Shown: in pieces, positions 24,506 to 64,000 of the stretch | Layout: each line of letters begins with the position of its first letter | Numbering within the stretch: the first letter of the stretch is position 1 | NCBI GenBank assembly: GCA_023250585.1 | Contig: JAHFAK010000001.1 | Location: 232-64,231 of the forward strand | DNA length: 64,000 nt | Direction: 5' to 3' | Origin: Deltaproteobacteria bacterium | GTDB lineage: Bacteria; Bdellovibrionota_F; JAHFAK01 | Notes under the pieces: model-generated | Told to the model about the DNA's origin: nothing | The model's input: only the letters and a program-made list of their open reading frames with translations | Database searches by the model: none | Translations under genes and position numbers: made by a program

Positions 24506-24540
24506 ATACTATTATTGTATATACTCTTAAAAAATTCTTA

Positions 24541-26849: not shown

Positions 26850-28395
26850 AAGGATCTTTAAAAATTTTATTAAACAACTTACTGATAAGCGCCTTAAGAG
26901 ATGCCTCCATACGAGACTCTTCTTTTTTTCCCATCACAATATTAAACAGGGGTTTGAAAAATCTTTGTGGACGTCTCACAAAGCTCACTGAATAAAAAAG
27001 CAGAAGACCAAAAATACGATACAAAGCTAGCTCTCTATGAGAAATATCATCCGACCATGATACTGATTTTGAAATATTTGAGGTTGTTGCTAAAGACCAG
27101 AAATACTCATCATGGTATTCGGGTAAACGTCCTGTAGCTCTTAAGTGATCATAGATTTCAGTTCCTGGATATGGAATATATCCTGAGATAGTTGTTTCAT
27201 GTACTCCCAACCATGCTATTTCTACTAAAAACTTCATTGTCTGCCATACTTCTCTATGCGTTTCTCCAGGAAAACCTAATATAGTATTACTCTTGATTAC
27301 CATGCCTTTTTTAAGACATCCTTTCATTGATTTTTTCATAGAATGAAGGTTCACCTTCTTTTTTATTCTCGCAAGTACTGTAGGCGACCCACTTTCTGGG
27401 GCATAATTTAAATTACGGCACCCTGATGTATAAAGAAGTTCTGCAACTTCTTCATCAATCGCTTCTGACCGTGTACCACTAGGCAGTTGCCAGGTAAATT
27501 GGTGTTTTCTTTTAAGAATAAGATTGCAAAATTCTACAATCCAATTTTTCTTAACAATTGCCGTGAGGTCATAAAAACTAAAATTTTCTGCTTTATACCG
27601 ATCAAGATACAATTCCATTTCTGATAAAACTTTTTCAGGTTTTCGTGCAACCCATCGGGTACTCCACATTTGAGGACTAGAACAAAAAGTACATTGATAC
27701 GGGCATCCACGTGTGGCAAGCATCGGCATATTTCGACCACGATTAACGCCGTAACCAAAGTTGTGGTCAAGATATTCTTCTAATCGAATAAGATCCCATG
27801 CAGGTAGGGGTATATCATCAATATCATGTACTCGAAGATTAAAGAGATATTTATCAACGGGACCGGAGCGATGTGGCTTTATAGGATTTGATTTTGTAAT
27901 AACAGCAGGAAGCCCTTCTCCGTTTTCACCTAAAGATAAAGCGCCTACAAGTCGAGTAAAATGCAACTCCCCCTCTCCTAATACACATGCATCGACTTCT
28001 TGAAAATTTTTTAAAATCCATGAAGCAGTAGCCGTTACATGTTCTCCCCCACAAATGATAGGCTTATGAGGGAATCGAAGCTTTAACTTTTTAATGACCT
28101 GATACGCAAGAGGCCACTCTACGGAGAACATAGCTGAAACACCAATGATATCGAAATTATCATCAACCCTTTCAACAATTTCATCAGGGGTAAGACCATG
28201 AATAATATGACGCCCATTATTAATAGGTGTCATTTGAAATATTGATTCTCCAACTGCATCGATAATTTTAACCTCATGTCCTGCTTCTCGTAAACTTGAT
28301 GCAATATACCCAAGCCCAAGTGGTGGACACGTGGATCGAGACTGAACAAGTCTCACAACAATCATTGGAGGACGAATTAAGATAACTCGACTCAT
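26827..28395 (-). CDS. B12-binding domain radical SAM enzyme, paralogue of 22901..24505
   Basis: RPPMIVVRLVQSRSTCPPLGLGYIASSL and ATRGCPYQCTFCSSPQMW. Collinear with the other copy over its whole length. Confidence 0.85.
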   Translation of the reverse strand: MSRVILIRPPMIVVRLVQSRSTCPPLGLGYIASSLREAGHEVKIIDAVGESIFQMTPINNGRHIIHGLTPDEIVERVDDNFDIIGVSAMFSVEWPLAYQVIKKLKLRFPHKPIICGGEHVTATASWILKNFQEVDACVLGEGELHFTRLVGALSLGENGEGLPAVITKSNPIKPHRSGPVDKYLFNLRVHDIDDIPLPAWDLIRLEEYLDHNFGYGVNRGRNMPMLATRGCPYQCTFCSSPQMWSTRWVARKPEKVLSEMELYLDRYKAENFSFYDLTAIVKKNWIVEFCNLILKRKHQFTWQLPSGTRSEAIDEEVAELLYTSGCRNLNYAPESGSPTVLARIKKKVNLHSMKKSMKGCLKKGMVIKSNTILGFPGETHREVWQTMKFLVEIAWLGVHETTISGYIPYPGTEIYDHLRATGRLPEYHDEYFWSLATTSNISKSVSWSDDISHRELALYRIFGLLLFYSVSFVRRPQRFFKPLFNIVMGKKEESRMEASLKALISKLFNKIFKDPFEKVFLR

Positions 28396-29147
28396 TAGTC
28401 AGTTCTTCCTATATGATACCCGCCATCGACGGGTAATGTTACGCCCGTAATCCACGAAGAATCATCGGAAAGTAAAAAAAGTACTGCGCGAGCAATATCA
28501 TGTATTGAACCAAATCTTCCTAAAGCATGACTCTTTTTCAGTGCTTCATGTTCGTCATCTGATAATGCTGATAGATAATTTTCTACCAATGGAGTTTCTA
28601 CATACCCTGGGCAGACACAATTTGCTCTAATATTATGTTTAGCATAGTCAATAGCAATTGATTGAGTCAGCCCAACAAGACCCCATTTACTTGACATATA
28701 CGATGCACGTTCTTTCAGTGCACAAATTCCTGCAATAGATGAAATATTGACAATACTTCCCGCGCCTACCGAAATCATATGCTCAAGCGCTGCCTTAGAA
28801 CAATTAAACACTCCGGTGAGATTTGTCGCAATGGTTTTTTCCCAATCATCAAAACTGGTATTTCCAAGAACATTACGGGATGGGTTAATACCGGCGTTAT
28901 TCACAAGTCCAGTGACAGCATGCCCCTCTTTTTTAAGATGTTCAAAAAGTTTTGTAACATCTTCGGGAATGCTTATATCACATACATTGGTAATAAGTGA
29001 CGAAGATCTTTTGAGAGAAGCTAATTTTTCTTCTGTACGACCAATAGCATAAACAGTTGCTCCTTCATGTACAAGATCATAGGTAATTTGTTTTCCAATA
29101 CCTGAACCTGCACCGGTAACGACGATCGTTTTTTCTTTAAATCGCAT
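28395..29147 (-). CDS. short-chain dehydrogenase/reductase (classical SDR)
   Basis: TIVVTGAGSGIGK, NNAGIN, and the YMSSKWG catalytic YxxxK. Confidence 0.85.
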   Translation of the reverse strand: MRFKEKTIVVTGAGSGIGKQITYDLVHEGATVYAIGRTEEKLASLKRSSSLITNVCDISIPEDVTKLFEHLKKEGHAVTGLVNNAGINPSRNVLGNTSFDDWEKTIATNLTGVFNCSKAALEHMISVGAGSIVNISSIAGICALKERASYMSSKWGLVGLTQSIAIDYAKHNIRANCVCPGYVETPLVENYLSALSDDEHEALKKSHALGRFGSIHDIARAVLFLLSDDSSWITGVTLPVDGGYHIGRTD

Positions 29148-29149
29148 AA

Positions 29150-30274
29150 CTATACATCTTGTTTCAATTTATTCCAATGATCAATCCAAATATTATCATG
29201 AGTATCAAAAAAACGCGTTAGGAAATTTTTTACTCTATCTGGTTCTACCATATAAAAAGGTGAACCATTATTGTTATAGGGTAGTGCAATATCTTTAATA
29301 AGAACAAGACCTATTTTTTCGCTGGATGATTTTTTATCTCCTCGCATAAGCGCTGTTATAGCTTCTGCATCGATTCCTTGCTGAACTCGTCTATTAAGAG
29401 CTAAACGATTCATAAGTATAACAACATAATCTTTGAGTTCTGATGAAATTATACTCTGCTCTACACTAAAAGTAAGAGCCATCATGATACCAGCAGCGAT
29501 CGCATCTCCATGGCTTACCTCGTAATGAGAATATTTTTCAAGCGCATGGCCAAACGTATGCCCTAGATTGCTTGCTAATGGATCTTGTCGTCGTATCTTA
29601 ATTCTCACATTAATTGTTTCTCGTACAATTTCTATCATTACATCATCCGATGGTACTTCTTTATAGGCCATGAGAAGATCAAGAAGACGATGCGATCCGA
29701 GTAATCCATATTTAAATACCTCAGAAAATCCTTGTCTCATTTGATACGGTGAATTCGTATGAAGTAAGGTTACATTGTTGTATACAACACGAGGAAGATA
29801 GAGTGTGCCTAATAAATTTTTTGAGTACTCTGTATTAATACACGTTTTACCTGCAGTCGCTGCATCAGCTTGACCAATTAACGTCGTAGGAATCATCATA
29901 AGAGGAATGCCTCTCATATATACTGAAGCAAGAAATGAAATCGCATCAAGAATTGTTCCACCCCCAAGAGCAACAATTAAATCATCTCGCGAACATTTTA
30001 AATGAGCAAGATGATCAACTAAGAAAGCAAATGATCTAAGATCTTTTGATGCTTCTTCTGCTTTTAGAAATATAATCCCTTCTAAAGGAAAAAAATTGTG
30101 CAATTTTTTTTGTAAAGCGGGTAACCACGTATTTCTCAAAGCTTCGTCACAAAAGACAATCACTTTTCCGGGTTGTTTTGTAAGAATATTAAGCGTAAGT
30201 TCATCAAAGCTTTTTGTTTTATCAAGAATAAAACGCACTGTTTGTGTCTCAGTAACTGATTCTTCAAAAATCAT
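29150..30274 (-). CDS. 3-dehydroquinate-synthase-like sugar-phosphate cyclase superfamily enzyme
   Basis: GGGTILDAISFLASVYMRGIPLMMIPTTLIGQADAATAGKTCIN and HTFGHALE match the DHQS nucleotide and metal sites. Confidence 0.8.
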   Translation of the reverse strand: MIFEESVTETQTVRFILDKTKSFDELTLNILTKQPGKVIVFCDEALRNTWLPALQKKLHNFFPLEGIIFLKAEEASKDLRSFAFLVDHLAHLKCSRDDLIVALGGGTILDAISFLASVYMRGIPLMMIPTTLIGQADAATAGKTCINTEYSKNLLGTLYLPRVVYNNVTLLHTNSPYQMRQGFSEVFKYGLLGSHRLLDLLMAYKEVPSDDVMIEIVRETINVRIKIRRQDPLASNLGHTFGHALEKYSHYEVSHGDAIAAGIMMALTFSVEQSIISSELKDYVVILMNRLALNRRVQQGIDAEAITALMRGDKKSSSEKIGLVLIKDIALPYNNNGSPFYMVEPDRVKNFLTRFFDTHDNIWIDHWNKLKQDV

Positions 30275-30288
30275 ATTTTCTCATGATG

Positions 30289-30999
30289 CTATAAGAGAAA
30301 GAGTTTTTCTCTTTCTCTTTGTTGTTCTATTTCTTTGATTTTATTGACTCGTGTAACAAAAGCATCAAAATTGCCTTGTATAAGATTATGTTCGCCGAGT
30401 ATCGAAAAAAGACGAGGCATTGTACTCATGTATATAGGGTCCATTTTTAAAAAATCAGCAGCAAAGTGGTAGCCTAATTGTTGAGGTTCCATGCATGAAA
30501 AAAAATCTTTTAAAATTTTTTTTTCATGCTCACACGCAAGTGAAAGACGTACATCATAGTAAGAATCTACCCACGGTGGAGTAAAATCAACATAAGCCAG
30601 TTCGACTCCATTCCATACAAAGTTTTTAATGTGAGGATCAAAATTCAATCGAGCGTTTTGTGCTTTACGGAGAATACTAAAAATCCTGTCGAGAACTTTT
30701 TTTTCCGGGAGCAGATCATTAGGTGCTATTTTCCTCATATATTGTAAAATATTTGGACCTTTAAACTCACATATATAGATGAGACGTTCTTGATTTGCTT
30801 CTGATTTATATATTTCTGGTACGGGAATTCCAGCACTTGTTAGTTTTGTAACGTAGTGAATAATAGCTTTCTCAAGATCACACCAGTGAATTCCCAAGTG
30901 AACATTTAGGCGAGTTTCCTTACGGATACATTCACGACCTTCAAAATGTACTGTAGAAAATTTAGAATCTTGAACGCTATAACGATTTAATTCTTCCAT
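30289..30999 (-). CDS. hypothetical protein with weak protein-kinase-like / phosphotransferase fold features
   Basis: RLNFDPHIKNFVW resembles the HxD-x4-N catalytic loop, and AYVDFTPP a DFG-like metal loop, of APH/choline-kinase/Kdo-kinase enzymes. Weak. Confidence 0.3.
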   Translation of the reverse strand: MEELNRYSVQDSKFSTVHFEGRECIRKETRLNVHLGIHWCDLEKAIIHYVTKLTSAGIPVPEIYKSEANQERLIYICEFKGPNILQYMRKIAPNDLLPEKKVLDRIFSILRKAQNARLNFDPHIKNFVWNGVELAYVDFTPPWVDSYYDVRLSLACEHEKKILKDFFSCMEPQQLGYHFAADFLKMDPIYMSTMPRLFSILGEHNLIQGNFDAFVTRVNKIKEIEQQREREKLFLL

Positions 31000-32036
31000 T
31001 GCCCAATATATCTTACTAAATCAACAACACGTGATGAATATCCCCATTCGTTGTCATACCACAAAACCATTTTCAGATAATTGTGTTCATTCATATAAAT
31101 CCATCGGTGATCTATGACAGCTGAATAGCTTGATCCAGTAAAGTCTGTAGAAACAAGCGCTTCTTTATTATTAAAGAATATATTCCATTTCTGATTTTTT
31201 TCTTCCTCTTCAAATACTGATTGAATGGTATCAACATTGACTTTTTCCTCGAGCTCAACGGAAAGATCAGCAGAAGAAACAATCATTGTTGGAATACGAT
31301 ATGACATAGATAAAAATTTTCCCGTAAGGTTTTTAAGTACTTTACATGAAGCAGAAATTGCAGATGTTGTTTTTGGTATTAATGAATTCGTACTTCCTCT
31401 TCCTAACGCATAATGATCATGAATTTTCCCCGGCGTAGCATAAGAAATCGAAGGACCATCAAGGAGATTCTGATAATTTAACCATGGATGTAGGGTAGTC
31501 AAAAATCCATGTTTAATTCCAAATTTTTTATCGAGCACATGTGCTGTCGGTGAAAAAGCATTGGCATCGCAGATACTACTTGAAATAAGAAAATGACGTT
31601 CTGGCTTGAAATCATCATGATTAACTCCTAAGATAATTGCAATATCAACTTCATCTTCTTGAGGAGCATTCGTAACAATGCAATGACGAACTCCTTGTGT
31701 TTTCAGTTTCCGTGCATTGATAAGATTCTGCTTAACCCCAGAAGAATCAATGACAATATCAACTCCTTCTTTATTCCATGGAACATCAGAAATATTTTCA
31801 TGACGATACACGCGCAATTTTTTTTCGTTTCCTATAGTAATTGTATCTCCTGTTACTGCAATACTCTTCTCAAGACGTCCATATGTTGAATCATACTTAA
31901 TAAGATAAGCAATATTATTAATATCTGGGTTAATATCGTTGATACAAACAATATCAATATCAGGATGCTCAAGCGTAATACGTAATACCGCTCGCCCTAT
32001 TCTTCCTAGACCGTTAATACCTACTTTAAAACTCAT
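30987..32036 (-). CDS. glyceraldehyde-3-phosphate-dehydrogenase-family dehydrogenase (divergent)
   Basis: Start refined to the internal ATG (MSFKVGINGLGRIGRAV). C-terminal WYDNEWGYS GAPDH signature. Active-site region SSSICDANAFSP retains Cys but is atypical. Confidence 0.8.
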   Translation of the reverse strand: MSFKVGINGLGRIGRAVLRITLEHPDIDIVCINDINPDINNIAYLIKYDSTYGRLEKSIAVTGDTITIGNEKKLRVYRHENISDVPWNKEGVDIVIDSSGVKQNLINARKLKTQGVRHCIVTNAPQEDEVDIAIILGVNHDDFKPERHFLISSSICDANAFSPTAHVLDKKFGIKHGFLTTLHPWLNYQNLLDGPSISYATPGKIHDHYALGRGSTNSLIPKTTSAISASCKVLKNLTGKFLSMSYRIPTMIVSSADLSVELEEKVNVDTIQSVFEEEEKNQKWNIFFNNKEALVSTDFTGSSYSAVIDHRWIYMNEHNYLKMVLWYDNEWGYSSRVVDLVRYIGQWKN

Positions 32037-32062
32037 ATTAATTCCTTTCGTAAAGAGCATTA

Positions 32063-32764
32063 TTATTGTATATTCTTTGATCGAGGATAATTCAAGAAAC
32101 TCATGCTGAGCCACAGTATTGATGAAATTCCATAAAAAATAGTTACAACAAATGAAATAACTTTTAGATCCCACCCACAAACAATAGTGATTCCTAAAAA
32201 AAGAGGAAGTAAAGCTAACATAAACCGTACTGAAAGAAATGAATATTTGTTATAGTATAAATGAACAAATGTTCCTATAAAACCTTGAGAAGGCATTTCT
32301 TTTACTGCCAGTGGAACAAAAATGATGAGCACTCCGCTTGAAAAAGCTGCGAGTAGAATTAAGTAATAGCTCTCTGTATAAATCCCAAAAAGGACAATGA
32401 GCATCAACCGAGCAAGATTACAGCCCAAATCATCAAGAAGGTGCCCAAGCATACTACAACTGTTTGAAGCTTTAGCTATAGGACCATCAGCAAAATCAAC
32501 AAAGATAAGAAAATAAATGCAAAAGATTCCAATAATGGGAAGCAGAACTACTCCATTCATAGCTGTCACAAGAAAACAATATCCAATGAACACAAGAAAA
32601 ATTGCAGAAACATCAAGCACGTTGGCGGTTATCCCAATTTTGTAAGCAAAAAAAGCAAACTGCAGTGCAATCCATTTCACAAGATTAGTCGTAAAATCAA
32701 ATTGTTTTCTGTCAAAAACTGATCTTTCAGGAAACTGTTTAGCTGTAAATTGAGTAAATGTCAT
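32063..32764 (-). CDS. CDP-alcohol phosphatidyltransferase-family membrane enzyme
   Basis: DFADGPIAKASNSCSMLGHLLDDLGCNLAR contains the D-G-x2-A-R/K...G-x3-D-x3-D signature. 6 TM helices. Confidence 0.7.
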   Translation of the reverse strand: MTFTQFTAKQFPERSVFDRKQFDFTTNLVKWIALQFAFFAYKIGITANVLDVSAIFLVFIGYCFLVTAMNGVVLLPIIGIFCIYFLIFVDFADGPIAKASNSCSMLGHLLDDLGCNLARLMLIVLFGIYTESYYLILLAAFSSGVLIIFVPLAVKEMPSQGFIGTFVHLYYNKYSFLSVRFMLALLPLFLGITIVCGWDLKVISFVVTIFYGISSILWLSMSFLNYPRSKNIQ

Positions 32765-33993
32765 AATGTAGTTCCTTCCATGAGTTCAAGAAAACGATCT
32801 GCTGAAATTGACCATGAATAATGCTTTTCGGTAATCGAACGGATATCTTCTGCTCGCATAACATACCTTTCTCGATTTCGACAAAAATCCTCTATTTTAT
32901 TACCTATGCTTTGAGGATCACATCCATTAATAATCCACTCTTTGTTATAGCGCTTAAGAATTTCTGGAGTTGCCCCATTGTCAGTGCCAAGCACAACAAG
33001 TCCTGAGAGTAATGCTTCAACAGTTGCAAGACCAAATCCTTCAGCACCTTGCGTAGGAAGAATAAAAGCATCCGCAACTTGATAGTAATGAGCTAACTCT
33101 ATTTCAGAAATTCCACTGACAAGGCGGACAGAATCTTTTAGAGAAAGTGAGTCTATGTACTGACGAATTTTCGTTTCCATCACACCTCGTCCAACAATTA
33201 TTATAAAAAATGAAACTCCTTTTTTTTTGAGCCCTGCAAGGGCTTCGACAAGTTTATCAACTCCTGTCCGAGGTTTCAAACCACGTGCTGTTATAAAAAG
33301 AATCTGCTCTAACGGAAGATTAAGTTCCTTACGAAGTTTTATCTTTAATGCATTATTAGTAATCGGAGTATACAGTTTTTCATCTGCTCCACCTGGAACA
33401 ATTTTAATCTTATCTTTAACTCCATTTCGGCCAATTGAAATACAACGATCACGTGCATACTCACTGTGAACCAAAACAAGATCTGCTTTGCTAATAACTG
33501 AAATAGCAATGCGATCGAAAAAATGTCCAATAATCTGTACTACTGGATTTTTTGGATAATTATATAAAAGTTCCGAATAAACATCACTATGAAAATCATA
33601 TATAATTTTTGCACGAGGCCACCATCGTTTTGGATTAAAACCTATCATCCACCATGGATTATGAACCCACACAACATCTATATTTTCATACTGCGATGCC
33701 ATCTTCTTCTGAGCACTATAGGATTGTACTGCAGTAACAAGAGGCCATAACATATGAGTGAGATCGCCTCTTTTAGGAATAGAAACTCGGAAATAGTGCA
33801 TATTTTCGACTATTTCATATGAAGAATATTTATGACTGTATTTCCGGGTAAGTATAATAACTTCATGGTTTCGATATGCTAATTCTCGTGAAATATTGTA
33901 TACAAGCTTAGGTAAGCCGCTATGGCGATCAGGATAAATTCCGGGTGTAAGAACAAGTATCTTCATTCTAGTTATTTTTTTTATGCCCAACAA
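32761..33993 (-). CDS. GT4-family glycosyltransferase (GT-B, retaining)
   Basis: C-terminal PTQGAEGFGLATVEALLSGLVVLGTDNGATPEIL is the EX7E region of Glycos_transf_1. Confidence 0.85.
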   Translation of the reverse strand: MLGIKKITRMKILVLTPGIYPDRHSGLPKLVYNISRELAYRNHEVIILTRKYSHKYSSYEIVENMHYFRVSIPKRGDLTHMLWPLVTAVQSYSAQKKMASQYENIDVVWVHNPWWMIGFNPKRWWPRAKIIYDFHSDVYSELLYNYPKNPVVQIIGHFFDRIAISVISKADLVLVHSEYARDRCISIGRNGVKDKIKIVPGGADEKLYTPITNNALKIKLRKELNLPLEQILFITARGLKPRTGVDKLVEALAGLKKKGVSFFIIIVGRGVMETKIRQYIDSLSLKDSVRLVSGISEIELAHYYQVADAFILPTQGAEGFGLATVEALLSGLVVLGTDNGATPEILKRYNKEWIINGCDPQSIGNKIEDFCRNRERYVMRAEDIRSITEKHYSWSISADRFLELMEGTTL

Positions 33994-35665
33994 AACGGTA
34001 ACTCAATAAAAGTATGCTCACCCATAGTAATAAAATCAATGAGGAAACAGTGAACTTTGTCTCTACCAACCCACAACCGCCGATAGAATCAACGTTCGAG
34101 AATATTGAAAGTCTCTTTATAGAACAGTTGACTTTACAACTTCCTTTAGAACTATTGCCATTAGCCTCTCCATCATCACATTCTTCTTCTCCCGCTTCTA
34201 TAAAACCATCTCCACATATAGCTAACTTACAAGTATTCAAGCATGAATCAGTATTCTCTGCATTACCATCATCACATTCTTCTTCTCCCGCTTCTATAAA
34301 ACCATCTCCACATATAGCTAACTTACAAGTATTCAAGCATGAATCAGTATTCTCTGCATTACCATCATCACATTCTTCACCCACAGCGAGTTTTCCATCA
34401 CTACATCCAAGTTCTATAGCTCCAATATCACATCTGACGCTTTGATCCCCATCACCATCAATTGGCCTAATAAAACCACGCTGATCAAAAGAAGGACAAC
34501 TCACTGGATCTCCTTTATCAATTGCAGGACTTCCGGGCCGAATCACATGAGTATCGGTGGGCCCTCCATTGTTATCAAGCGAACCTAGTTTCACATCCAG
34601 TTCATAATTCGGATAATATCCATAGATATCAGTAGTATTTGAAGGTTTAGGAAGATCATAGGTATTAACACCATTTATCTTACATCCCATGGTTACTTTG
34701 ATGATGTTGTATCCCTCTGAAACAATTGGGCCTCGACAATCATGCGGCGGACTCCCCTGATCAGGACTTGCATCCTTATTCTCCGCTATAATCGTATTCT
34801 TTACTACTATAGTTAATACATCTGTTGGAAAATCACTTGTATAAATTCCCCACGTAAAATCACCTATGGCTATACCACCTGCATGACCACTATCATTTTT
34901 ATCGCTATCGGCAGTATTACTAGAAATTGTACTATTTACTATGGTTGTCTCAGCGTCTAAGGACATTGCCGCACCACTCTCGATTGTAGTATTTCCGCTA
35001 AACGTAGAACTTTCTACAATCATTATTCCCGAAGCATTCCATACTCCACCGCCATAGTCTGCTTTATTACCAGAAATAGTACTCCGATCTATATGTAATA
35101 TCCCATTATTCGTATTTAATATTCCTCCTCCTGTTCCTAGTCCCTCTGATATACCTGTTAAAGAATGAACTGCTACAGGAAAAGTTCCTGAAAGGGTACT
35201 ATTATTTTTGATAGTACAATAGAAAAGAGATAAATTTCCTTCATTGCGAACACCTGCTCCACCCTTATCAACATCCATTCCATTTTGGATTGTCACATCT
35301 CGAATTGTTACTGTTGCACCTGAAGCAACAAAGAAAATTCGTGGAGGAGTATTTCCTCCATCAATGAAAGTACTTCGTGTACCCGATCCCTGAAGTGTAA
35401 TATCTTTATTAATGGTGATCCCATTTTCAATATACGTCCCCTCAGCAATAATAACAACATCAGCATCCTGTGACGCTTCTATCGCTTCTTTAATTGAACA
35501 ATAGGGATTACCATGTATATCATTACAATGGGAATCATTTTTATTAACATTTCGTGTGATACCAGCCCACGTATGAGAAATAAACACTGGACTACTCATT
35601 AGAATTACCATAGCTGTAAGGGAAATATATTTTATTTGGTAGATCTTAATTTTTATACTCAACAT
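33968..35665 (-). CDS. secreted right-handed parallel beta-helix protein with three C-terminal cysteine-rich (Myxococcus-type CGDG...CDDGN) repeats and a C-terminal hydrophobic anchor
   Basis: Signal peptide MLSIKIKIYQIKYISLTAMVILMSSPVFISHTWAG. PbH1-like repeats (NNSTLSG, ISGNKADYGGGVWNASG, FSGNTTIESGAAM, ISSNTADSD). 3x CGDGFIEAGEEECDDGNAENTDSCLNTCKLAI. Ends ...LILLLWVSILLLSYRFVGHKKNN. Confidence 0.7.
   Translation of the reverse strand: MLSIKIKIYQIKYISLTAMVILMSSPVFISHTWAGITRNVNKNDSHCNDIHGNPYCSIKEAIEASQDADVVIIAEGTYIENGITINKDITLQGSGTRSTFIDGGNTPPRIFFVASGATVTIRDVTIQNGMDVDKGGAGVRNEGNLSLFYCTIKNNSTLSGTFPVAVHSLTGISEGLGTGGGILNTNNGILHIDRSTISGNKADYGGGVWNASGIMIVESSTFSGNTTIESGAAMSLDAETTIVNSTISSNTADSDKNDSGHAGGIAIGDFTWGIYTSDFPTDVLTIVVKNTIIAENKDASPDQGSPPHDCRGPIVSEGYNIIKVTMGCKINGVNTYDLPKPSNTTDIYGYYPNYELDVKLGSLDNNGGPTDTHVIRPGSPAIDKGDPVSCPSFDQRGFIRPIDGDGDQSVRCDIGAIELGCSDGKLAVGEECDDGNAENTDSCLNTCKLAICGDGFIEAGEEECDDGNAENTDSCLNTCKLAICGDGFIEAGEEECDDGEANGNSSKGSCKVNCSIKRLSIFSNVDSIGGCGLVETKFTVSSLILLLWVSILLLSYRFVGHKKNN
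34171..34400. repeat. tandem direct repeat, unit 96 bp: two perfect copies (34171-34266, 34267-34362) plus a diverged partial third copy; encodes the 32-aa cysteine-rich repeats of the beta-helix protein
   Basis: Identical 96-nt strings (catcatcacattcttcttctcccgcttctataaaaccatctccacatatagctaacttacaagtattcaagcatgaatcagtattctctgcattac) at 34171 and 34267. Confidence 0.9.
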
Positions 35666-35668
35666 TCT

Positions 35669-36262
35669 TTATACAAGAAAAGAAATTTCTTGAGCTATTC
35701 TATGAGTATCACGTTGACCAATGATACGATTATAAACTAAAGATACTTTCTTGGCAGTTTTTGTCTCAAGATCATAACTAAGACAACCAACAATTGGTTT
35801 ATAATAAACATGAAGCGTACAGGCACGACGATTGTTAATTGCAGGATTCTCTAATTGATGAATCCCGATCTCATCATCAATATAAGAAACGTCTCCCCTA
35901 TTATACGTTTCTTGAAGTAATGGTGTAAGGTCGCCTTTAAAGTCAATGGATTTTACATAAACATAATTTTTACTCTCTATAGTCCCTCGTAGAACAGTCA
36001 TACAACAATGCTGCCCTTCATGATCATGAATTGGTGTTTTTTGCCCTGGTTCCCAACATAGAATAAGTATTTCAAAAAATTCATTTTTAAAAATAAGATT
36101 CCGGGTATAATGAGATTGATGAAAATAATATAAATTTTCCAAGGAACATTCAAAAAGTTTATATTGATGCATGAGTTCTAAAATTCTTTCATTTTCTATA
36201 GCTAAGGATGGAGAGAATAATCGAGAAATTTTCTGAATAAATTCTCTCAGTTGAGTTAGCAT
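35669..36262 (-). CDS. cysteine-dioxygenase-type-I-like cupin (thiol dioxygenase family)
   Basis: ILILCWEPGQKTPIHDHEGQHCCMTVLRG closely parallels mammalian CDO [29 protein letters not shown] (the 3-His iron site HxH...H). Confidence 0.7.
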   Translation of the reverse strand: MLTQLREFIQKISRLFSPSLAIENERILELMHQYKLFECSLENLYYFHQSHYTRNLIFKNEFFEILILCWEPGQKTPIHDHEGQHCCMTVLRGTIESKNYVYVKSIDFKGDLTPLLQETYNRGDVSYIDDEIGIHQLENPAINNRRACTLHVYYKPIVGCLSYDLETKTAKKVSLVYNRIIGQRDTHRIAQEISFLV

Positions 36263-36373: not shown

Positions 36374-38353
36374 TTAATACATTCGGGGAAGAGCATTAAT
36401 AGTTTTTAGCACTTCTTTATGATTAACACGTATCACATCGAGATATTCTAATATAGACTCTTTGCGAGGATAATTTTCTACTTCTATAAGCTTTAATGCA
36501 TCTGACCGATCGATGTGATGTTCACGTATTTGATTTGAACGAAAACAATCATTTTCGCTAAAACCGCATATCGTTCTATACACATAGTTATAGAAAGCAG
36601 CGGTTCCATCACCTATACGCCATGTAGTACTTGTATCTTTCGCTATCTCCCAATTATATTCATTAATTAAGATATCATTTATAATTTTTTCATTCCATGG
36701 AACATATTTATATAAATAAACATGGTCTTGCCGAATAAAATAATAACAAAGATAAGCCCAAAAAGTATCGATGATAGAATTATTAAGATACCGAGGATTA
36801 AGAAGATATTGCTTCATATAGTAATAGAGAATCTTAATCTTATTAAAGTTAGAAATAGTTATATGTCGTCTACCTTGAGACAGATCTTTGACATATCCAA
36901 TATTATTAATTCCTGAAAAACCTGCTTTAAAGCCTACATGCTCTAAGAAATTTTGACAAAAGATTAAGAGCTGTATTCCCGTATCTTTTTTTATCTTGTT
37001 CGCATAATAGAAAAATTGTTTATCTCCTGCCATCAATAATGGGATCATTCCAAGAACTGGCTGATGAATCCAGGCATTAATATTTTTTCTGATATTATCC
37101 CTCTTTTTTTTGATATCGGCTGAAACAAGAATATGCTCAATACCAAGTTTTCCACAGACTCTAGCTTGATTTCGTCTGCCAATATCGGTAATTATCCCCC
37201 AATCATATGAATAGGCAATGGGATTCATACCAAATTCTTTTTTAATAAGATGCAGACCATAACTGCTGTCGCGTCCACCGCTAAAGGCAACAATGCAATC
37301 TGGATTACCGTTATTTTGGCGATGCTCATCTAAAATTTGAAGGAACTTGTCCTTTCCCTGTAATTTGATATTTTTGTAAGAATGACAGTAATTACAAACT
37401 CCTTTCTCATCAAAGCTAATGAAAGGCATAGTTTCTGTAAGTATACAGATGGAACAACGCTTTAAATGGTAATTTTGAGGATAAAGCCATAGATTTTCAT
37501 TATCATTGAACTCCGTATTTTCTACTGCATTTTTAAAAGCATTCCCATTCTTTTGAGAAAATATGCGAGATTGACATTTATTAGAGTTATCTAACAAAAA
37601 ATTCTCTCTATGAAGAGTATCAAGGTTCATGATAATTGCCTGATGAGCACCTACATGAAAAATTTCTAATTTATTTTCAAAAGATTTTAATATCCCACAA
37701 GACTTAATTCGTTTTAGCATTGAGTATTCAGATGCAAAAATGAAGATTTCTTGGTTTGAATCAGCCATATAATAGAGAGATCCATTATTCGTAGCTAGAA
37801 TTAAATTTTTGTTTATACTATCTATCAAAGCAGTAGAAACAGTGCCTTCTATTTCACTATACGTTAAACTAAGTGATTGCGCATAAGAATGATTTCTACA
37901 TAAATGAGAAAAAATTTTCAGAAAGATTTCTGTATCTATGGTGTGTTTTTTTTCTAAAAACGAGTATTTATCCCATAGCATATCATCATTGACAATAATT
38001 CCATTATGAATACAGTAAAAAGAATGTTCTTCAAGGGGTTGATTATTATCTTGATGGATACTGCTCCCATCCGTAACTAATCGTGTATGGCCAATAACGC
38101 AGCTTGGGTGTATATTATCTGTCTTTTTACTGCCTATATTAAATAATTCTTTAAACTCTCGACTCTTAATAAACACAGAGGCCTTTTCTCTAGATTTTTT
38201 AATTGTTACTTTATTATCTTTAAAGATTGCAATTCCGGCAGCATCTTTCCCGCGAGACTGAGAGTATTGAAACAACTTTTGAGTGGTTTCTTGGAAACTA
38301 TCACAAGGAATAATATCTGCTTCTCTTAGTGCTATACCAAATATACCACACAT
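36374..38353 (-). CDS. fusion: class-II (Ntn) glutamine amidotransferase domain + zinc-ribbon/PP-loop N-acetyl-sugar amidotransferase domain (WbuX/WbpG/PseA-like)
   Basis: N-terminal MCGIFGIA (Cys2 nucleophile), GHTRLVTDG, HNGIIVND as in AsnB/PurF. Mid-protein CSICILTETMPFISFDEKGVCNYC zinc ribbon followed by PP-loop IVAFSGGRDSS, as in TIGR03573-type amidotransferases. Confidence 0.75.
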   Translation of the reverse strand: MCGIFGIALREADIIPCDSFQETTQKLFQYSQSRGKDAAGIAIFKDNKVTIKKSREKASVFIKSREFKELFNIGSKKTDNIHPSCVIGHTRLVTDGSSIHQDNNQPLEEHSFYCIHNGIIVNDDMLWDKYSFLEKKHTIDTEIFLKIFSHLCRNHSYAQSLSLTYSEIEGTVSTALIDSINKNLILATNNGSLYYMADSNQEIFIFASEYSMLKRIKSCGILKSFENKLEIFHVGAHQAIIMNLDTLHRENFLLDNSNKCQSRIFSQKNGNAFKNAVENTEFNDNENLWLYPQNYHLKRCSICILTETMPFISFDEKGVCNYCHSYKNIKLQGKDKFLQILDEHRQNNGNPDCIVAFSGGRDSSYGLHLIKKEFGMNPIAYSYDWGIITDIGRRNQARVCGKLGIEHILVSADIKKKRDNIRKNINAWIHQPVLGMIPLLMAGDKQFFYYANKIKKDTGIQLLIFCQNFLEHVGFKAGFSGINNIGYVKDLSQGRRHITISNFNKIKILYYYMKQYLLNPRYLNNSIIDTFWAYLCYYFIRQDHVYLYKYVPWNEKIINDILINEYNWEIAKDTSTTWRIGDGTAAFYNYVYRTICGFSENDCFRSNQIREHHIDRSDALKLIEVENYPRKESILEYLDVIRVNHKEVLKTINALPRMY

Positions 38354-38373
38354 TCGTAACTACCTCCAATCAT

Positions 38374-39564
38374 CTATTTCCCATGAAAGTAGGTGACTTT
38401 TTTTCTCTTACCATCCCAATGAATATCGGGAATGAGAACCTCTTTCTTTGCTTCTATACGATCTCGATATTTAATAAGATCCTGTAACATGATATGAATC
38501 TCTGCTTCCATATCTTTTGTTGGTTGATAGCCTAGTTCTAGTAGCTTTTTATGATCGGGTTTATAGTAATGTTCTTCCGCTTCATACCGTGGATTTTCAA
38601 CATTCTTAACTTCTACTTTTAATCCCAGATCTCTTCCTACACTTTTTACTTTTAAGGCCAATTGTGTAATATCATATACTTCTTCAAACTGATTGAAGAC
38701 TCGATATTCTCCTTGTGCAGGAGGATTTTCAATAACAAGCGTTAAACACTGGATTGAATCTTTCAGAGGCAAGAAACCCCGTTTTTGATGACCCTTTCCA
38801 AATGGAGAAAGTGGTTGATCAACTACAGCTTGGCAACAGAAACGATTGATAGCTGTTCCAAAACACTGGTCAAAATCAAGTCTCGTCAGCAAACGATCAT
38901 CTTCGTTCATTTCAAGAATACGCGAACCATATACTATTCCTTGCATAATATCAGAAGAACGAAGTCCCCAAATACGACAGGCAAGCATGACATTATTGCT
39001 ATCATGTACTTTACTTTGATGGTACCAACTACCCGCTTGCCGAGGAAAAGGAAGATTTTCTTTTCGACCACGATATTCAATCTCAAAAAACCCTTCAGGA
39101 ATATCTATGTTTGGTGTGCCGTACTCCCCCATAGTTCCCAGCTTTATAAGATGACCTTGTGGTGTTATATTCTTCATAGCATAGAGGACATTAAGAGTAC
39201 CTACAATATTGTTTGTCTGCGTCCACGCAGCATGTTTAGCATCAATCATACTGTAAGGAGCAGATGGATTTTCGCCTAAATGGACAATGGCTTCAGGTTT
39301 GAAATCTCTGAATATCTGTTCCACAAAATCGTAATGAATAAGATCCCCCTTAGAAAAAAAGAGTTCCTTTTTAAAGTGATCCTCAAAAGCTTTCAGACGT
39401 TCTGGCATTTCGTGAATAGGGAGAGCAGAATGGGAATCCATTTCACTCACACATTCTCGACGTGAAAAATTATCTATTCCTCCTATGGTATAACCTTTCG
39501 AAGCAAGACGTAGTGCAAGAGACCAACCTAAATATCCATCAATACCTAAAATAAGAACTCTCAT
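38374..39564 (-). CDS. sqdB: UDP-sulfoquinovose synthase
   Basis: Collinear with plant SQD1 and cyanobacterial SqdB: MRVLILGIDGYLGWSLALRL (SQD1 VMVIGGDGYCGWATALHL), GENPSAPYSMID, KLGTMGEYGTPNIDIPEG, YHQSKVHDS, FGTAINRFCCQAVVDQPL, RVFNQF, NPRYEAEEHYY. Confidence 0.9.
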   Translation of the reverse strand: MRVLILGIDGYLGWSLALRLASKGYTIGGIDNFSRRECVSEMDSHSALPIHEMPERLKAFEDHFKKELFFSKGDLIHYDFVEQIFRDFKPEAIVHLGENPSAPYSMIDAKHAAWTQTNNIVGTLNVLYAMKNITPQGHLIKLGTMGEYGTPNIDIPEGFFEIEYRGRKENLPFPRQAGSWYHQSKVHDSNNVMLACRIWGLRSSDIMQGIVYGSRILEMNEDDRLLTRLDFDQCFGTAINRFCCQAVVDQPLSPFGKGHQKRGFLPLKDSIQCLTLVIENPPAQGEYRVFNQFEEVYDITQLALKVKSVGRDLGLKVEVKNVENPRYEAEEHYYKPDHKKLLELGYQPTKDMEAEIHIMLQDLIKYRDRIEAKKEVLIPDIHWDGKRKKVTYFHGK

Positions 39565-39576
39565 GAAAAACTCCTA

Positions 39577-40899
39577 TCACAATTGAACTTGATTACCTTT
39601 GGTTTTAAGAAAATGAGCTTGAAAATATCTCCATACATATGTCATCCCTGCCCCAGCATACAAAGCTAAAAATGGCTCCAAAGGAAGCCGTGCTCGCATA
39701 CTCGATCTTATCAATGTAAATATAAAAACGAGTGAGATACAATAACCCCATATGACTAAATGGCTCCTAAACATTTTTCGTGCTCTTATAAGCCCAACAA
39801 GAGCTAACAACAAAATAGGTCCATAGGTCACTATACTCATTACTTTAAAAGGTGATGCCGTAAAAGAACTTTCTGAAATAGTTTCTTCCGGATAAAACCT
39901 CCACAAATTTAGAAATCGTTCAAGACAAAGGACAAGGAATTGTAGAGGATGAGATCTAATAAAATCTGTTGACTTAGCAGTAAAAATTCTATTTTTTGCC
40001 AAATCATTTTCATCTTTTAGTTCTTCTTCTATTCTAGGTAAAATATTGTTAGTAAACTGTAGAAAGTTTTCCTTTCTATTAAATCCAGATGAAAATTCAT
40101 TATTATGCATATATAAAACTTTTCCTACATTGCTTTTTGTAGTCAAAAACTCCCCAAGAACAAAATAATTACGTATACCCCAGAGACATACCGTTGAATA
40201 AAAAATAAGCATAAATAGCACTGTTTTTGTTACCCTCTTTATTAATGACTCGTGTCTTAAGATATACATTACGATGAAGAAAGCAAGAATGATAAAAGGG
40301 CTTAAGATTGAAATTGTAAAATTGGCCAATCCAAAAAGTAATGCGGATAACCAAAGAAAAGACGGTTTCGTACATGCCAGTGAGAAGCTCAAAATTCCTA
40401 ACACCACAAGAAGAGTAAAAAATGTTTCTGGAAGAATAAGAACAGATGAAAAAATAAGAATAGGATAACAAGCAACAATAAACATAGCACATAGAGCACT
40501 CGTTTTTCCAAAAATATGGCGCGTTAGAAAATATACGCAAGGCATCATACTTGAATTAAGGCATGCTAGGATAATGCGTGTCCATAGAATATCTCCATCT
40601 CCTAAATGAAAATAAATTGAAAGTACATAGGGAAAAAATGGCATGATATTAGTTTTACTCCCCCACCCTTTACCTTCAAATAATCGAAGGGCTGCTGGGT
40701 AATAATCGTTTATTTCATCAGGCCATATAAAACGATCACCTGTAACAAAAACAGCAACAATTATACGAAGGGCACCTCCGATGAAACATATAAAAAGTGG
40801 AATAATCACACTATTTGAGTTATTTCCACCAACTCTTGATAATAGTTTTTCCAAAGTTAAATCCATAATTCCAATCAGTGCCTTTTTTTGTAATACCAT
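39577..40899 (-). CDS. GT-C fold membrane glycosyltransferase (ArnT/PMT-like, GT83/GT39-type)
   Basis: About 11 TM helices. First periplasmic-loop motif FIWPDEINDYYPAALRL (the DE motif of GT-C enzymes). Follows a membrane GT2. Start may be further downstream; 80-nt overlap with the upstream gene as drawn. Confidence 0.55.
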   Translation of the reverse strand: MVLQKKALIGIMDLTLEKLLSRVGGNNSNSVIIPLFICFIGGALRIIVAVFVTGDRFIWPDEINDYYPAALRLFEGKGWGSKTNIMPFFPYVLSIYFHLGDGDILWTRIILACLNSSMMPCVYFLTRHIFGKTSALCAMFIVACYPILIFSSVLILPETFFTLLVVLGILSFSLACTKPSFLWLSALLFGLANFTISILSPFIILAFFIVMYILRHESLIKRVTKTVLFMLIFYSTVCLWGIRNYFVLGEFLTTKSNVGKVLYMHNNEFSSGFNRKENFLQFTNNILPRIEEELKDENDLAKNRIFTAKSTDFIRSHPLQFLVLCLERFLNLWRFYPEETISESSFTASPFKVMSIVTYGPILLLALVGLIRARKMFRSHLVIWGYCISLVFIFTLIRSSMRARLPLEPFLALYAGAGMTYVWRYFQAHFLKTKGNQVQL

Positions 40900-41863
40900 A
40901 TTTTCTTGTATGAATTATTATAGAAACCTCTCCTATACGAAGGCCTTTTTTAGCAGACTCAAGTATTACCTCTGCAGATTGGAATTGATCTTCTTTTAGT
41001 TGAAGACACTTAAGAGCATTAACATTAAAAGCCTTGAGGCCGCTCGAACAATCAGTCAATCGTACATTGGCAAGAAAGTTAATAATTCTTGTAAAAAATC
41101 GAATCCCTATCTTTCTTAATGTACTCCCTCTATAAGCTCCCATCATTCGGGATCCAATCACGAGATCCTTTTCTCCGTTTATAATTGGAGCTACTAATTT
41201 TTCAATTTCAAGAGGAGAATGTTGAAGATCTGCATCCATGGTGACTCCAATAGGAATATTATAGTTAACTAAAACATCGTACCCTAGTCTCGATGCAGCT
41301 CCTTGTCCACGATTAATCTTATTTTTGACAACGACAGCTCCACTCTCACAACTCACTCCCGCAGTGTTATCAGTACTTCCATCATCAATGACAAGAATTC
41401 CTACTGATCTTCTTTGAATCGTGCGAGGTATCTTACTAAGGAGTTCTTGTAAGTTTGCTTCTTCATTGAATGCAGGAATGATAATGACAATTTCCTTATT
41501 AAAAAGTTCCTTGTCCAAAACATTCTTAGCTTCTTCATATCCCAAACGACGAAGGAGAAGATCAATTTGATGTCTCATATCATCAAACAATGATTTTGTA
41601 TAGAAGAAAAAAATCCATATGACAAAATTTGAAGCTATAAGCAAAGCTAATATTCGTCCTCTCTGATGCATTGCCAATTGCAACATTTCTGCAATTGCAT
41701 TGAGAATATTTGGGTTAGAACTTACTAAAAGGAGTGACACACTGAAACACGCGGAAAAAACAAAATTCATCCTTCTCCATTTAGGTCCTCTATAGAAAAT
41801 AAAACTTAAGACAAGACCTATTAGACCTAAACTAAAACCAAATATACGTAGACTTGAAAACAT
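40820..41863 (-). CDS. membrane-anchored GT2 glycosyltransferase (polyprenyl-phosphate sugar synthase, ArnC/DPM1/GtrB-like)
   Basis: Three N-terminal TM helices, then IVIIIPAFNEEANLQELLSKI and GILVIDDGSTDNT GT2 motifs. Confidence 0.75.
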   Translation of the reverse strand: MFSSLRIFGFSLGLIGLVLSFIFYRGPKWRRMNFVFSACFSVSLLLVSSNPNILNAIAEMLQLAMHQRGRILALLIASNFVIWIFFFYTKSLFDDMRHQIDLLLRRLGYEEAKNVLDKELFNKEIVIIIPAFNEEANLQELLSKIPRTIQRRSVGILVIDDGSTDNTAGVSCESGAVVVKNKINRGQGAASRLGYDVLVNYNIPIGVTMDADLQHSPLEIEKLVAPIINGEKDLVIGSRMMGAYRGSTLRKIGIRFFTRIINFLANVRLTDCSSGLKAFNVNALKCLQLKEDQFQSAEVILESAKKGLRIGEVSIIIHTRKYGITKKGTDWNYGFNFGKTIIKSWWK

Positions 41864-41869
41864 ATAATA

Positions 41870-42823
41870 TTATTGAGAAGTATAACTTTCTTTGAAATAG
41901 TCGAACGTTTTTTGTAGACCCTCTCGTAAATTAGTTCTTATACTAAATCCTAAATCTTTTTTAGCTTTTGTACTATCTGCATAATTTCTTACGACTTCCC
42001 ACTCTGATCTTTGCATATGAGCTATTTCTACTCGATATTTACCTTCTCTTTCAATAACCTGCTTGATGAGAATAACCAGATCTTTTATACTTGTTTCTCG
42101 ATTGGTACCAATATGAAAAATTTCTCCACATCCTTTCTTTTGAATTGCACAAAGAATAGCTTCACAAAGGTCATCAACAAATATAAAATCTCTTGTTTGT
42201 GAACCATCTCCGTAAATAATAATAGATTTTTTCTCAAGAACGTTTTTCATACATTTTGCCACGACACTATTTTTATGTAGGGAAAAGGGTCCATAGACAT
42301 TGCTAAATCGAAGAATAGTTGAAGGAATTCCAAAGCTTTTTGTGTAAGCTCGAGTATATCCCTCACACGAAAGCTTCCCCGCCCCATAAGGAGAAGTAGG
42401 TTTTGCTGCAAGCTCTTCATTATAGGGAGGATTAACCTCTCCCAAAGCAGCACCAGATGAGGCAAGAATAAAACTTGAGACTCGCGCCTCACGGGCCGCT
42501 TCAAGCATATTAAGAGTACCTCGAACATTTATTTCAAAATCTACTCGTGGATTATTAAGTGAAGGAGCAATTCCCGTCGAAGCAGCAAGATGAATAACAA
42601 CATTACAATCTGAACAAGCATTTTGACAACTCTTATAATCTAAAATATCTGCCTCGCGTACTTCTATAGATGGATCTATTTTCATTATTGTTTCTCGACG
42701 TCCGATACTAAGATTATCCAGGATACAAAGAGTAAGATTAGGTATTCTTTGACGAAGCATTATAATAAGATTTGTTCCAATAAATCCACACCCGCCAGTA
42801 ATAAGCCATCTTTGAGTTGTCAT
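41870..42823 (-). CDS. NAD-dependent nucleotide-sugar epimerase/dehydratase (extended SDR; UDP-GlcA decarboxylase or 4-epimerase type)
   Basis: WLITGGCGFIGTNLI, catalytic YGAGKLSCE (YxxxK). 317 aa. Confidence 0.85.
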   Translation of the reverse strand: MTTQRWLITGGCGFIGTNLIIMLRQRIPNLTLCILDNLSIGRRETIMKIDPSIEVREADILDYKSCQNACSDCNVVIHLAASTGIAPSLNNPRVDFEINVRGTLNMLEAAREARVSSFILASSGAALGEVNPPYNEELAAKPTSPYGAGKLSCEGYTRAYTKSFGIPSTILRFSNVYGPFSLHKNSVVAKCMKNVLEKKSIIIYGDGSQTRDFIFVDDLCEAILCAIQKKGCGEIFHIGTNRETSIKDLVILIKQVIEREGKYRVEIAHMQRSEWEVVRNYADSTKAKKDLGFSIRTNLREGLQKTFDYFKESYTSQ

Positions 42824-63490: not shown

Positions 63491-64000
63491 AGAGTTGTGT
63501 ATCCTTTCTCGATCAAAAATTCGACAAAGTGAAAATCAATCTCACGGTCTATATCAAAACCTGAAACATCCGGCATACAATACACAATTGAATTATCGGT
63601 GATGACCGATGTATTTTCTTTGAGAAAAAAATTCCGGGAATAAAAATAAATCGAGGCGTTCATATCATAAACTTTCGGAGCATCTTGCCTTCGATGAGTA
63701 GCATGCGTTAATGACTTTGAAAGATGCGCTCGTCCGTTTCGATCAAGTTCTACCATATTAAAATATGGATTTTTATGAGAAGGTACAACGCTAAATAAAT
63801 TTTCAGGTTTTTCTTTAAGAAATAACTGATAACAATTTTCCAAATCCTTTGTAGTTCTTAAAGGAGACGTAGCATCGAGATCAACGACTATATCGTACTT
63901 CTCATTAAATATTTTTTCGGATTCTAATACTGCATGATGAATGACGGCTAATTTATCCGCAGTATCACTTGCCAAATCTTTCGGACGCTCGAAAGGCACT
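63487..64000 (-). CDS. CMP-sugar (acylneuraminate/Kdo-type) cytidylyltransferase, C-terminal part; gene start lies beyond window end
   Basis: VVDLDATSPLRTTKDLENCYQLF and the later dimerisation region resemble the NeuA/KdsB CTP_transf_3 family. The N-terminal P-loop-like block is absent, so the ORF is truncated by the window. Confidence 0.55.
   Translation of the reverse strand, partial: VPFERPKDLASDTADKLAVIHHAVLESEKIFNEKYDIVVDLDATSPLRTTKDLENCYQLFLKEKPENLFSVVPSHKNPYFNMVELDRNGRAHLSKSLTHATHRRQDAPKVYDMNASIYFYSRNFFLKENTSVITDNSIVYCMPDVSGFDIDREIDFHFVEFLIEKGYTTL

Follow-up and report, generated by a model that had tools for sequence, protein, structure and literature searches.

Acetamidino sugars, which influence charge, immune recognition and motility, are components of O-antigens, of the glycans on flagellin and pilin, and of archaeal N-glycans. 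The amidotransferase step is not known to have been reconstituted, one reason being that three proteins are required in the canonical system. The canonical N-acetyl-sugar amidotransferases (NASATs), such as WbuX, WbpG and PseA, are stand-alone proteins encoded next to genes for HisH/HisF-like partners, named WbuY/WbuZ or AglY/AglZ. This three-gene arrangement is mirrored in the NCBIfam names of WbuZ and AglZ/HisF2, and a worked example has been published (PMC11340318). The motifs that define the family are the tetracysteine CXXCXn[GN]XCXXC and SGGXDS; the cysteines bind zinc in Legionella LpNASAT (8WEX), the only solved NASAT structure, for which the role of the PP-loop was also described (PMC10607449). 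Here, we analyzed a 64,000-nucleotide stretch of a Deltaproteobacteria bacterium genome (assembly GCA_023250585.1, contig JAHFAK010000001.1, positions 232 to 64,231; hereafter the window), in which one gene encodes a class-II glutaminase joined to a NASAT-superfamily domain (hereafter the fusion).

The fusion is likely to be a self-sufficient, glutamine- and ATP-dependent sugar amidotransferase that belongs to a distinct and widespread clade of the NASAT superfamily. Its architecture and conservation are presented first, followed by the gene neighborhoods, the proposed reaction with its rivals, and the comparison with known systems.

Glutaminase and NASAT-superfamily domains in one polypeptide

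The fusion is a single chain of 659 residues that begins with MCGIFG. An identical protein and more than 100 full-length homologues are present in public data. The ATG start (ATG-TGT) is the earliest possible one after the upstream in-frame stop and is preceded by a GGAGG ribosome-binding site, which together support Met1-Cys2 as the true N-terminus. With this start, Cys2 would become N-terminal after removal of the methionine, as an N-terminal nucleophile (Ntn) hydrolase requires. All motifs quoted in the first-pass annotation (CSIC...GVCNYC, SGGRDS at residues 358-363, GHTRLVT and HNGII) are present in the open reading frame (ORF), and the joining of a glutaminase to a zinc-ribbon/PP-loop protein in one chain, which it had proposed, is real according to Pfam, NCBIfam and residue conservation.

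In the N-terminal half, the Pfam models GATase_7 and GATase_6 matched residues 83-214 with E values of about 1e-12, and residues 1-225 matched the NCBIfam glutaminase domains of GlmS, PurF and AsnB. Conservation was assessed in an alignment of 36 homologues (43-57% identity) from many bacterial phyla and Methanoperedens archaea. C2, R34-G35, R91, T94, N103-N104, N117-G118 and D140 were invariant in this alignment. When the residues were aligned to the E. coli GlmS domain (1XFF), R91, T94, N117-G118 and D140 paired with R73, T76, N98-G99 and D123 of GlmS, which serve in glutamine binding and in the oxyanion hole of GlmS. The Met-Cys start was kept in the representatives whose match begins at residue 1, and the N-terminal domain has the four-layer fold of Ntn hydrolases.

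The C-terminal half aligned to the WbuX model TIGR03573 over residues 298-652, covering profile positions 2-343 of 344 with an E value of 6.6e-38 (NCBIfam). The domain thus shows homology to WbuX and LpNASAT (8WEX) across the whole NASAT fold and carries both NASAT motifs, the tetracysteine and the SGGXDS PP-loop. The four cysteines (C300, C303, C320 and C323), the PP-loop S358-GGRDS-363 and approximately 60 further positions were invariant in the 36 homologues, and SGGRDS was present in every fusion sampled. Since all of the quoted residues are invariant across the 36 homologues, the motif match is far beyond chance. Judged from this alignment, both active sites of the fusion are under purifying selection.

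The label "WbuX/PseA-type" given by the first-pass annotation holds for the homology over the full WbuX profile and overstates the membership. The fusion scored 131 bits against a curated TIGR03573 cutoff of 203 bits (203.2) and did not reach it. As canonical comparators, stand-alone NASATs recovered from the family neighborhoods were used, which scored 307 bits, above the cutoff. A profile-profile comparison of the fusion family with these canonical NASATs gave 99.7% probability over 337 columns at 19% identity. The fusion C-domains had a median identity of 56% among themselves and 22% to the canonical NASATs, and a distance tree clearly separated the two types. The C-domain is not covered by any Pfam model, and all NCBIfam models scored below their cutoffs on it. 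Invariant motifs particular to the fusion clade are YDWG, PLFMAGDK and TWRIGDGTAAFYNY. By these sequence comparisons, the fusion C-domain is a deep sister clade, inside the NASAT superfamily and outside the curated WbuX family. Because it lies outside that family, the amidine chemistry discussed below is inferred from homology.

An AlphaFold2 model built on the alignment had a mean predicted local distance difference test (pLDDT) score of 85.2 and a predicted template modeling (pTM) score of 0.88. Only linker residues 270-282 and two loops were disordered, and the pTM score indicates a defined packing of the two domains in the model. The AsnB structure aligned to the N-domain only, and a Foldseek search found no solved chain that shares the two-domain arrangement (TMq 0.36 or less). 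No transmembrane (TM) segment was predicted in the fusion; it is therefore considered cytoplasmic.

Ammonia supply and gene neighborhoods

To survey the neighborhoods, all ORFs within 10 kb of the fusion were clustered without prior assumptions for the best 80 of at least 586 loci. HisH/HisF genes were absent from 76 of the 80 loci, and each of the other four also carried a separate canonical WbuX. In the window itself, tblastn searches with real HisH and HisF queries found no HisH/HisF-like gene (best E 0.06-0.6). The earlier statement that the window has no such gene is thus correct, and it does not extend past the window end, where the contig continues to HisH and WbuZ/HisF2. Because both active sites are invariant and 76 of 80 loci lack HisH/HisF, ammonia supply in cis is the natural reading. 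The core idea of the first-pass annotation, that the fusion delivers ammonia differently from the canonical trio, is well supported by the glutaminase in cis.

The most frequent neighbors were a family 2 glycosyltransferase (GT2), a Wzx-type flippase and methyltransferases (Table 1). Other recurring neighbors were SDR, DegT aminotransferase, UDP-GlcNAc 2-epimerase, acetyltransferase and AsnB genes. In the neighbor GT2, two or three TM helices come after the catalytic domain, at the C-terminus, and the best family matches of 34 such proteins included AglJ (33), PpgS (29), dolichyl-phosphate-hexose transferase (21) and ArnC (18). On these matches, the neighbor GT2 is assigned to the polyprenyl-phosphate-sugar synthase class. 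Among 68 multi-TM neighbors other than Wzx within 5 kb, PMT_2 (GT-C, ArnT-like) was by far the commonest with 21, against four with Wzy_C.

Many loci are minimal cassettes of the type GT2-fusion-Wzx or GT2-methyltransferase-fusion-GT-C, without genes for sugar-nucleotide synthesis. Such cassettes fit a housekeeping N-acetylhexosamine (HexNAc) donor such as UDP-GlcNAc. A different order was observed in two archaeal-type loci, L092 (Candidatus Methanoperedens; GCA_012026795.1) and L091, where a 510-aa GT2 and the fusion are followed by DUF354, a CapK-like adenylating enzyme and a GT4. This order is unlike the bacterial cassettes, so the family serves several glycan contexts. The company of GT2, flippase and GT-C genes indicates that the fusion probably acts in a polyprenyl-phosphate sugar-decoration pathway rather than in a nonulosonic-acid branch.

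Table 1. Features of the fusion gene, its neighbors in the window, recurrent neighbors among the 80 surveyed loci (counts are approximate lower bounds) and the module beyond the window end.
Feature	Position or frequency	Strand or placement	Evidence or remark
Fusion-protein ORF, complete (659 aa plus stop)	36374..38353	-	ORF reading; homologues; model
GGAGG ribosome-binding site, 9 nt upstream of ATG	38363..38367	-	Sequence read directly
Class-II (Ntn) glutaminase domain, residues 1-255	37589..38353	-	Nucleophile Cys2 codon 38348..38350
Variable inter-domain linker, residues 256-296	37466..37588	-	No alignment consensus; pLDDT <50 at 270-282
NASAT-superfamily domain (zinc ribbon, PP-loop ATP pyrophosphatase, helical C-terminal region), residues 297-659	36377..37465	-	
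Tetracysteine zinc-ribbon motif C300-x2-C303 ... G-V-C320-x2-C323	37385..37456	-	All four Cys invariant
PP-loop S358-G-G-R-D-S363 (ATP alpha-beta cleavage site)	37265..37282	-	All six residues invariant
SDR nucleotide-sugar epimerase/dehydratase, first gene of conserved module	41870..42823	-	Syntenic in L087; L025 43% identity
DUF2304 + GT2, polyprenyl/dolichyl-phosphate-sugar-synthase type	40820..41863	-	Best matches AglJ, PpgS, dolichyl-phosphate-hexose transferase, ArnC
GT-C-type (PMT_2/ArnT-like) membrane glycosyltransferase	39577..40899	-	PMT_2 E 4e-8; 7 predicted TM; counterpart in L087
UDP-sulfoquinovose synthase (SQD1/SqdB type), upstream of fusion	38374..39564	-	NF041015 579 bits vs cutoff 575; PDB 1QRR E 3.7e-119
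Cysteine-dioxygenase-type cupin (CDO_I), downstream of fusion	35669..36262	-	CDO_I E 1.6e-23
GT2 of about 320 aa	47/80 loci (37-47 by search)	usually directly upstream; fusion strand	
Wzx-type flippase	36/80 loci	usually directly downstream	
S-adenosylmethionine methyltransferases	at least 21/80 loci	adjacent	
HisH, WbuZ/HisF2, two WbuX	L093:939-6027 (about 3.5-8.5 kb past window end)		Window coordinate = 73491 - L093 coordinate

The window consists of a single long glycan cluster, transcribed in one direction, in which sulfur is a prominent theme. Several informative neighbors of the fusion had been passed over in the first reading, namely a UDP-sulfoquinovose synthase (SQD1), a polyprenyl-phosphate-type GT2, a GT-C and a cysteine dioxygenase (CDO)-like cupin. 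The intergenic gaps are 12 nt between GT-C and SQD1, 20 nt between SQD1 and the fusion, and 111 nt between the fusion and the CDO gene. A promoter/terminator scan, otherwise at shuffle background, found nothing resembling a terminator in the gaps from SQD1 through the fusion to the CDO gene. As called from the first start, the GT-C and GT2 ORFs share 80 nt (40820..40899), and the true GT-C start probably lies further downstream than called.

Among relatives with a long contig, the closest (L087; fusion 52% identity) has the identical order SDR-GT2-GT-C-SQD1-fusion followed by Wzx, and its SQD1 is 71% identical to that of the window. In a cultured Rhizobiales isolate (L025; fusion 44% identity), SQD1, GT2 and SDR are 41%, 42% and 43% identical to the window genes. 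One strand of L025 carries a multi-TM protein, a methyltransferase, a PglF-type UDP-GlcNAc 4,6-dehydratase, SQD1, GT2, SDR, a 247-aa ORF, Wzx and the fusion. Antisense ORFs called in this high-GC locus hid the SQD1-GT2-SDR synteny, which was revealed by tblastn. SQD1, SDR, GT2 and the fusion thus recur jointly in both L087 and L025.

SQD1 was found beside the fusion in approximately 3 of the 86 loci examined (1 of 80 genome loci, plus L087), and CDO in none of the 80 loci. The CDO gene is also absent in L087 and specific to this genome. Both genes were therefore rejected as family-wide partners, and SQD1 was retained as a partner of one subtype. The syntenic block of SQD1, polyprenyl-phosphate-type GT2 and SDR spans 38374..42823 (-) in the window, L087:5581-9975 and L025:4675-7922, with GT-C in the window and L087. 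It suggests that sulfoquinovose-type sugars are delivered to a bacterial surface glycan on a lipid carrier, and not by way of the usual sulfoquinovosyl-diacylglycerol lipid pathway. The CDO cupin shares the cluster with SQD1, ATP sulfurylase and a sulfotransferase, and a TauE-family protein is encoded just past the window end. CDO may supply sulfite via cysteine sulfinate.

Other features of the window were also observed. A 730-aa protein (60531..62723, -) combines a pyruvate-kinase barrel (PF00224, residues 7-316) with PUA_2 and ATP-sulfurylase domains, and it is followed by a sulfotransferase (59591..60511). The presence of a kinase-like barrel and a sulfate-activating enzyme in one protein is an unusual combination. 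A secreted beta-helix protein (33968..35665, -) has choice-of-anchor Q and DUF4215/myxo cysteine-rich repeats. Its gene contains a perfect 96-bp tandem duplication at 34170..34378 (2.2 copies, 100% identity), which indicates a very recent repeat expansion. Within the glycan cluster, at 22901..28395 (-), an FkbM methyltransferase and a PhyH-dioxygenase + Rieske fusion lie between two B12-binding radical-SAM enzymes, and these genes suggest unusual C-methylation or hydroxylation chemistry. The adjoining row at 28395..32764 (-) encodes an SDR, a 3-dehydroquinate-synthase-like sugar-phosphate cyclase, a DUF6206-like protein, a GAPDH-like dehydrogenase and a CDP-alcohol phosphatidyltransferase-like protein, and it may form a branch for a cyclitol-phosphate or polyol-phosphate substituent.

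Proposed reaction and rival explanations

In the proposed reaction, Met1 would be removed and Cys2 of the Ntn domain would hydrolyze glutamine. The ammonia would then move inside the protein, through a putative tunnel, to the C-terminal domain. There, the PP-loop with ATP would adenylate a sugar carbonyl oxygen, most likely that of an N-acetyl group. Displacement of AMP by ammonia would yield an acetamidino (amidine) group together with AMP, pyrophosphate and glutamate. The pathway around this step would lead from a nucleotide sugar to a polyprenyl-phosphate sugar (GT2), then to flipping (Wzx-like) and GT-C transfer, so that a single sugar is added as a decoration; the substrate of the fusion may be nucleotide-linked or lipid-linked. 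Methylation, or 6-sulfonation by SQD1 in the subtype of the window, would be optional additions. The PglF-type UDP-GlcNAc 4,6-dehydratase in the L025 operon was counted in favor of this pathway context.

Several points weigh against this interpretation. SQD1 is expected to produce sulfoquinovose, a sugar that lacks an N-acetyl group. SQD1 might take an N-acetylated substrate, or two different sugars might be modified, or, least likely, the sulfonate itself might be amidated. The C-domain lies below the WbuX cutoff with approximately 19-22% identity to canonical NASATs, so its acceptor chemistry may differ. The neighbor counts are approximate because greedy longest-ORF calling was used. Moreover, a clade member without a glutaminase (L010:17809-18897) shows that the synthetase domain can occur without a fused glutaminase. 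This paralogue aligns to the entire C-domain at 39% identity and takes a basal position in the fusion-type clade; its PP-loop is SGGGRDS, and methyltransferase and GT2 families typical of fusion loci flank it. The same genome also has a full fusion (L010:10001-12028). Finally, the canonical NASATs themselves have not been reconstituted, and their use of ATP is only inferred (PMC10607449).

The rival that survives best keeps the same bifunctional class and changes the acceptor. The PP-loop domain would then adenylate an acid group in place of an N-acetyl carbonyl, and the fusion would amidate the carboxylate of a uronic acid to a uronamide or, in the SQD1 subtype, the C6 sulfonate of sulfoquinovose to a sulfonamide. 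The divergence of the C-domain and the missing N-acetyl group of sulfoquinovose leave room for this explanation, which we regard as unlikely. Against amidation of a sulfonate, the window fusion keeps every family-invariant residue.

A second rival, suggested in the first-pass annotation, is that a nonulosonic acid produced by NeuA-linked genes receives its acetamidino or amide group from the fusion. The fragment at the window end (63487..63999) is indeed NeuA-like (PDB 6IFD, E 1.9e-15), although the truncated piece was unmatched by Pfam at E<=1e-3, and PseA and the Legionella NASAT act in nonulosonic-acid pathways (PMC10607449). However, this NeuA belongs to a module that is approximately 25-36 kb away from the fusion and carries its own amidotransferase genes. 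On the same strand of the contig, 0.2-9 kb past the window end, the module encodes a NeuC-like epimerase, a PIG-L deacetylase, HisH (239 bits), WbuZ/HisF2 (291 bits), two canonical WbuX (358 and 395 bits), a NeuD/PglD acetyltransferase, NeuB (457 bits), a GFO/IDH oxidoreductase, the TauE-family protein and NeuA. With these genes, the nonulosonic-acid branch is fully equipped with classical acetamidino machinery of its own, which makes the fusion a third, divergent paralogue. In addition, the SDR-GT2-GT-C-SQD1 module around the fusion recurs without NeuB/NeuA in L087 and L025, and NeuB-type genes are not among the 25 most frequent neighbor clusters, of which 21 were annotated. A tie between the fusion and the nonulosonic acid is thus quite improbable.

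Two side observations concern this module. WbuX #1 (424 aa) has TGDGDS where the SGGXDS PP-loop is expected and, on its sequence, may be catalytically altered. A faint Y1 transposase-like ORF lies between the two WbuX paralogues. The idea that the fusion replaces the HisH/HisF/WbuX trio was also considered and rejected: four of the 80 loci, and this genome as well, contain both the fusion and the trio.

A third rival holds that the glutaminase domain is degenerate or purely regulatory and that the enzyme uses free ammonia, as the glutaminase-less L010 paralogue might suggest. It is very improbable, since Cys2, the oxyanion-hole Asn-Gly and the glutamine-binding Arg/Thr/Asp are invariant in the 36 sequences and the Met-Cys start is kept.

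The last rival, in which the fusion is simply a paralogue of asparagine synthetase B whose linker is long, has next to no chance of being correct: AsnB also combines an Ntn glutaminase with a PP-loop and JGI names several homologues "asparagine synthetase B", but Asn_synthase (PF00733) was not matched by the fusion at E<=1 in Pfam (against E 3e-98 for a true AsnB beside one homologue), TIGR01536 (AsnB) aligned to residues 2-221 only, and a profile search of the PDB with the fusion retrieved no AsnB chain. Neither a C-terminal half closer to AsnB nor a failure against WbuX models, the two outcomes that the first-pass annotation had named as contrary to its proposal, was found.

Distribution and comparison with known systems

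The fusion architecture turned out to be common and not exceptional. Full-length relatives were found in at least 586 species in a scan of one genome per species, and an exhaustive HMMER search of 1.84 billion representatives gave 459 clusters at 50% identity (E<=1e-30). Nearly all of the best 150 of these 459 clusters are 620-690 aa long and match end to end, so that the fusion architecture is fixed as far as sequences tell. The carriers include Patescibacteria, Planctomycetota and Methanoperedens archaea, and the cultured ones include Ramlibacter humi, Oceanibacterium hippocampi, a Bosea sp. and a Rhizobiales isolate. A metagenome scan for close relatives yielded a 2.9-kb fragment only.

Nearly all homologues are labeled "hypothetical protein", and some are labeled "asparagine synthetase B" or "glucosamine-fructose-6-phosphate aminotransferase". 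A literature search found no published description of the fusion; its coverage of subscription journals was slight, so absence is not proven. The family is best described as an unnamed new clade and architecture within a known superfamily, common in nature. Naming it would correct many annotations that now carry AsnB or GlmS misnomers. If the proposed function is true, an enzyme that unites glutaminase and synthetase in a single polypeptide would offer a convenient system for studying the chemistry and could perhaps be used to produce amidino sugars. The linkage to a polyprenyl-phosphate GT2, Wzx and GT-C points to an undescribed decoration pathway, and the loci with SQD1 suggest that some bacterial surface glycans contain sulfoquinovose-type sugars.

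The two halves of the fusion resemble different known enzymes. The glutaminase domains of GlmS/GFAT and PurF are the top sequence and structure matches for residues 1-255, and their catalytic residues align one-to-one. In contrast, their acceptor domains are a sugar isomerase and a phosphoribosyltransferase, which are unrelated to the NASAT-type PP-loop domain of the fusion. AsnB, beta-lactam synthetase and TsnB9 share a common design with the fusion, namely an N-terminal Ntn glutaminase and a C-terminal PP-loop adenylating domain. The passage of ammonia between the two sites is established for AsnB, and a similar passage is proposed for the fusion. The likeness to AsnB lies in this design logic, whereas the synthetase domains are unrelated.

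Compared with the canonical NASATs, the fusion carries a class-II glutaminase in cis and is not a stand-alone protein with adjacent HisH/HisF-like genes. Its neighbors also differ from those of the canonical NASATs, being a polyprenyl-phosphate-type GT2, Wzx, methyltransferases and GT-C.

These partners match those of single-sugar decoration routes. In the Arn, NaxD, PpgS and GacI-L routes, a single sugar is placed on polyprenyl phosphate, its N-acyl group is remodeled in the cytoplasm, and the product is flipped and transferred by a GT-C enzyme. The ArnC/ArnD/ArnEF/ArnT system, Francisella FlmF2/NaxD/FlmK, mycobacterial PpgS and streptococcal GacI-L correspond to the fusion loci in their DPM1/GtrB/ArnC-type GT2, flippase and GT-C. 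GT2 and PMT_2 are encoded together in the window, and across the family GT2 was counted at 47 of 80 loci, Wzx at 36 of 80 and PMT_2 in 21 of the 68 multi-TM neighbors.

A doubtful but possible reading is that these loci encode an uncharacterized third way to charged surface sugars made on a lipid carrier. A polyprenyl-phosphate- or UDP-linked HexNAc would be converted to a cationic acetamidino sugar, flipped and attached by GT-C, and the SQD1 subtype would add a C6 sulfonate to give a zwitterionic sulfo-amidino sugar. Amidation of the sulfonate itself by the fusion would be a variant of lower probability. In this comparison, the fusion would be the counterpart of the soluble cytoplasmic enzyme that remodels the N-acyl group in the known routes. 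In those routes, a deformylase or deacetylase (ArnD, NaxD) removes the N-acyl group to leave an amine, whereas the fusion would convert it to an amidine.

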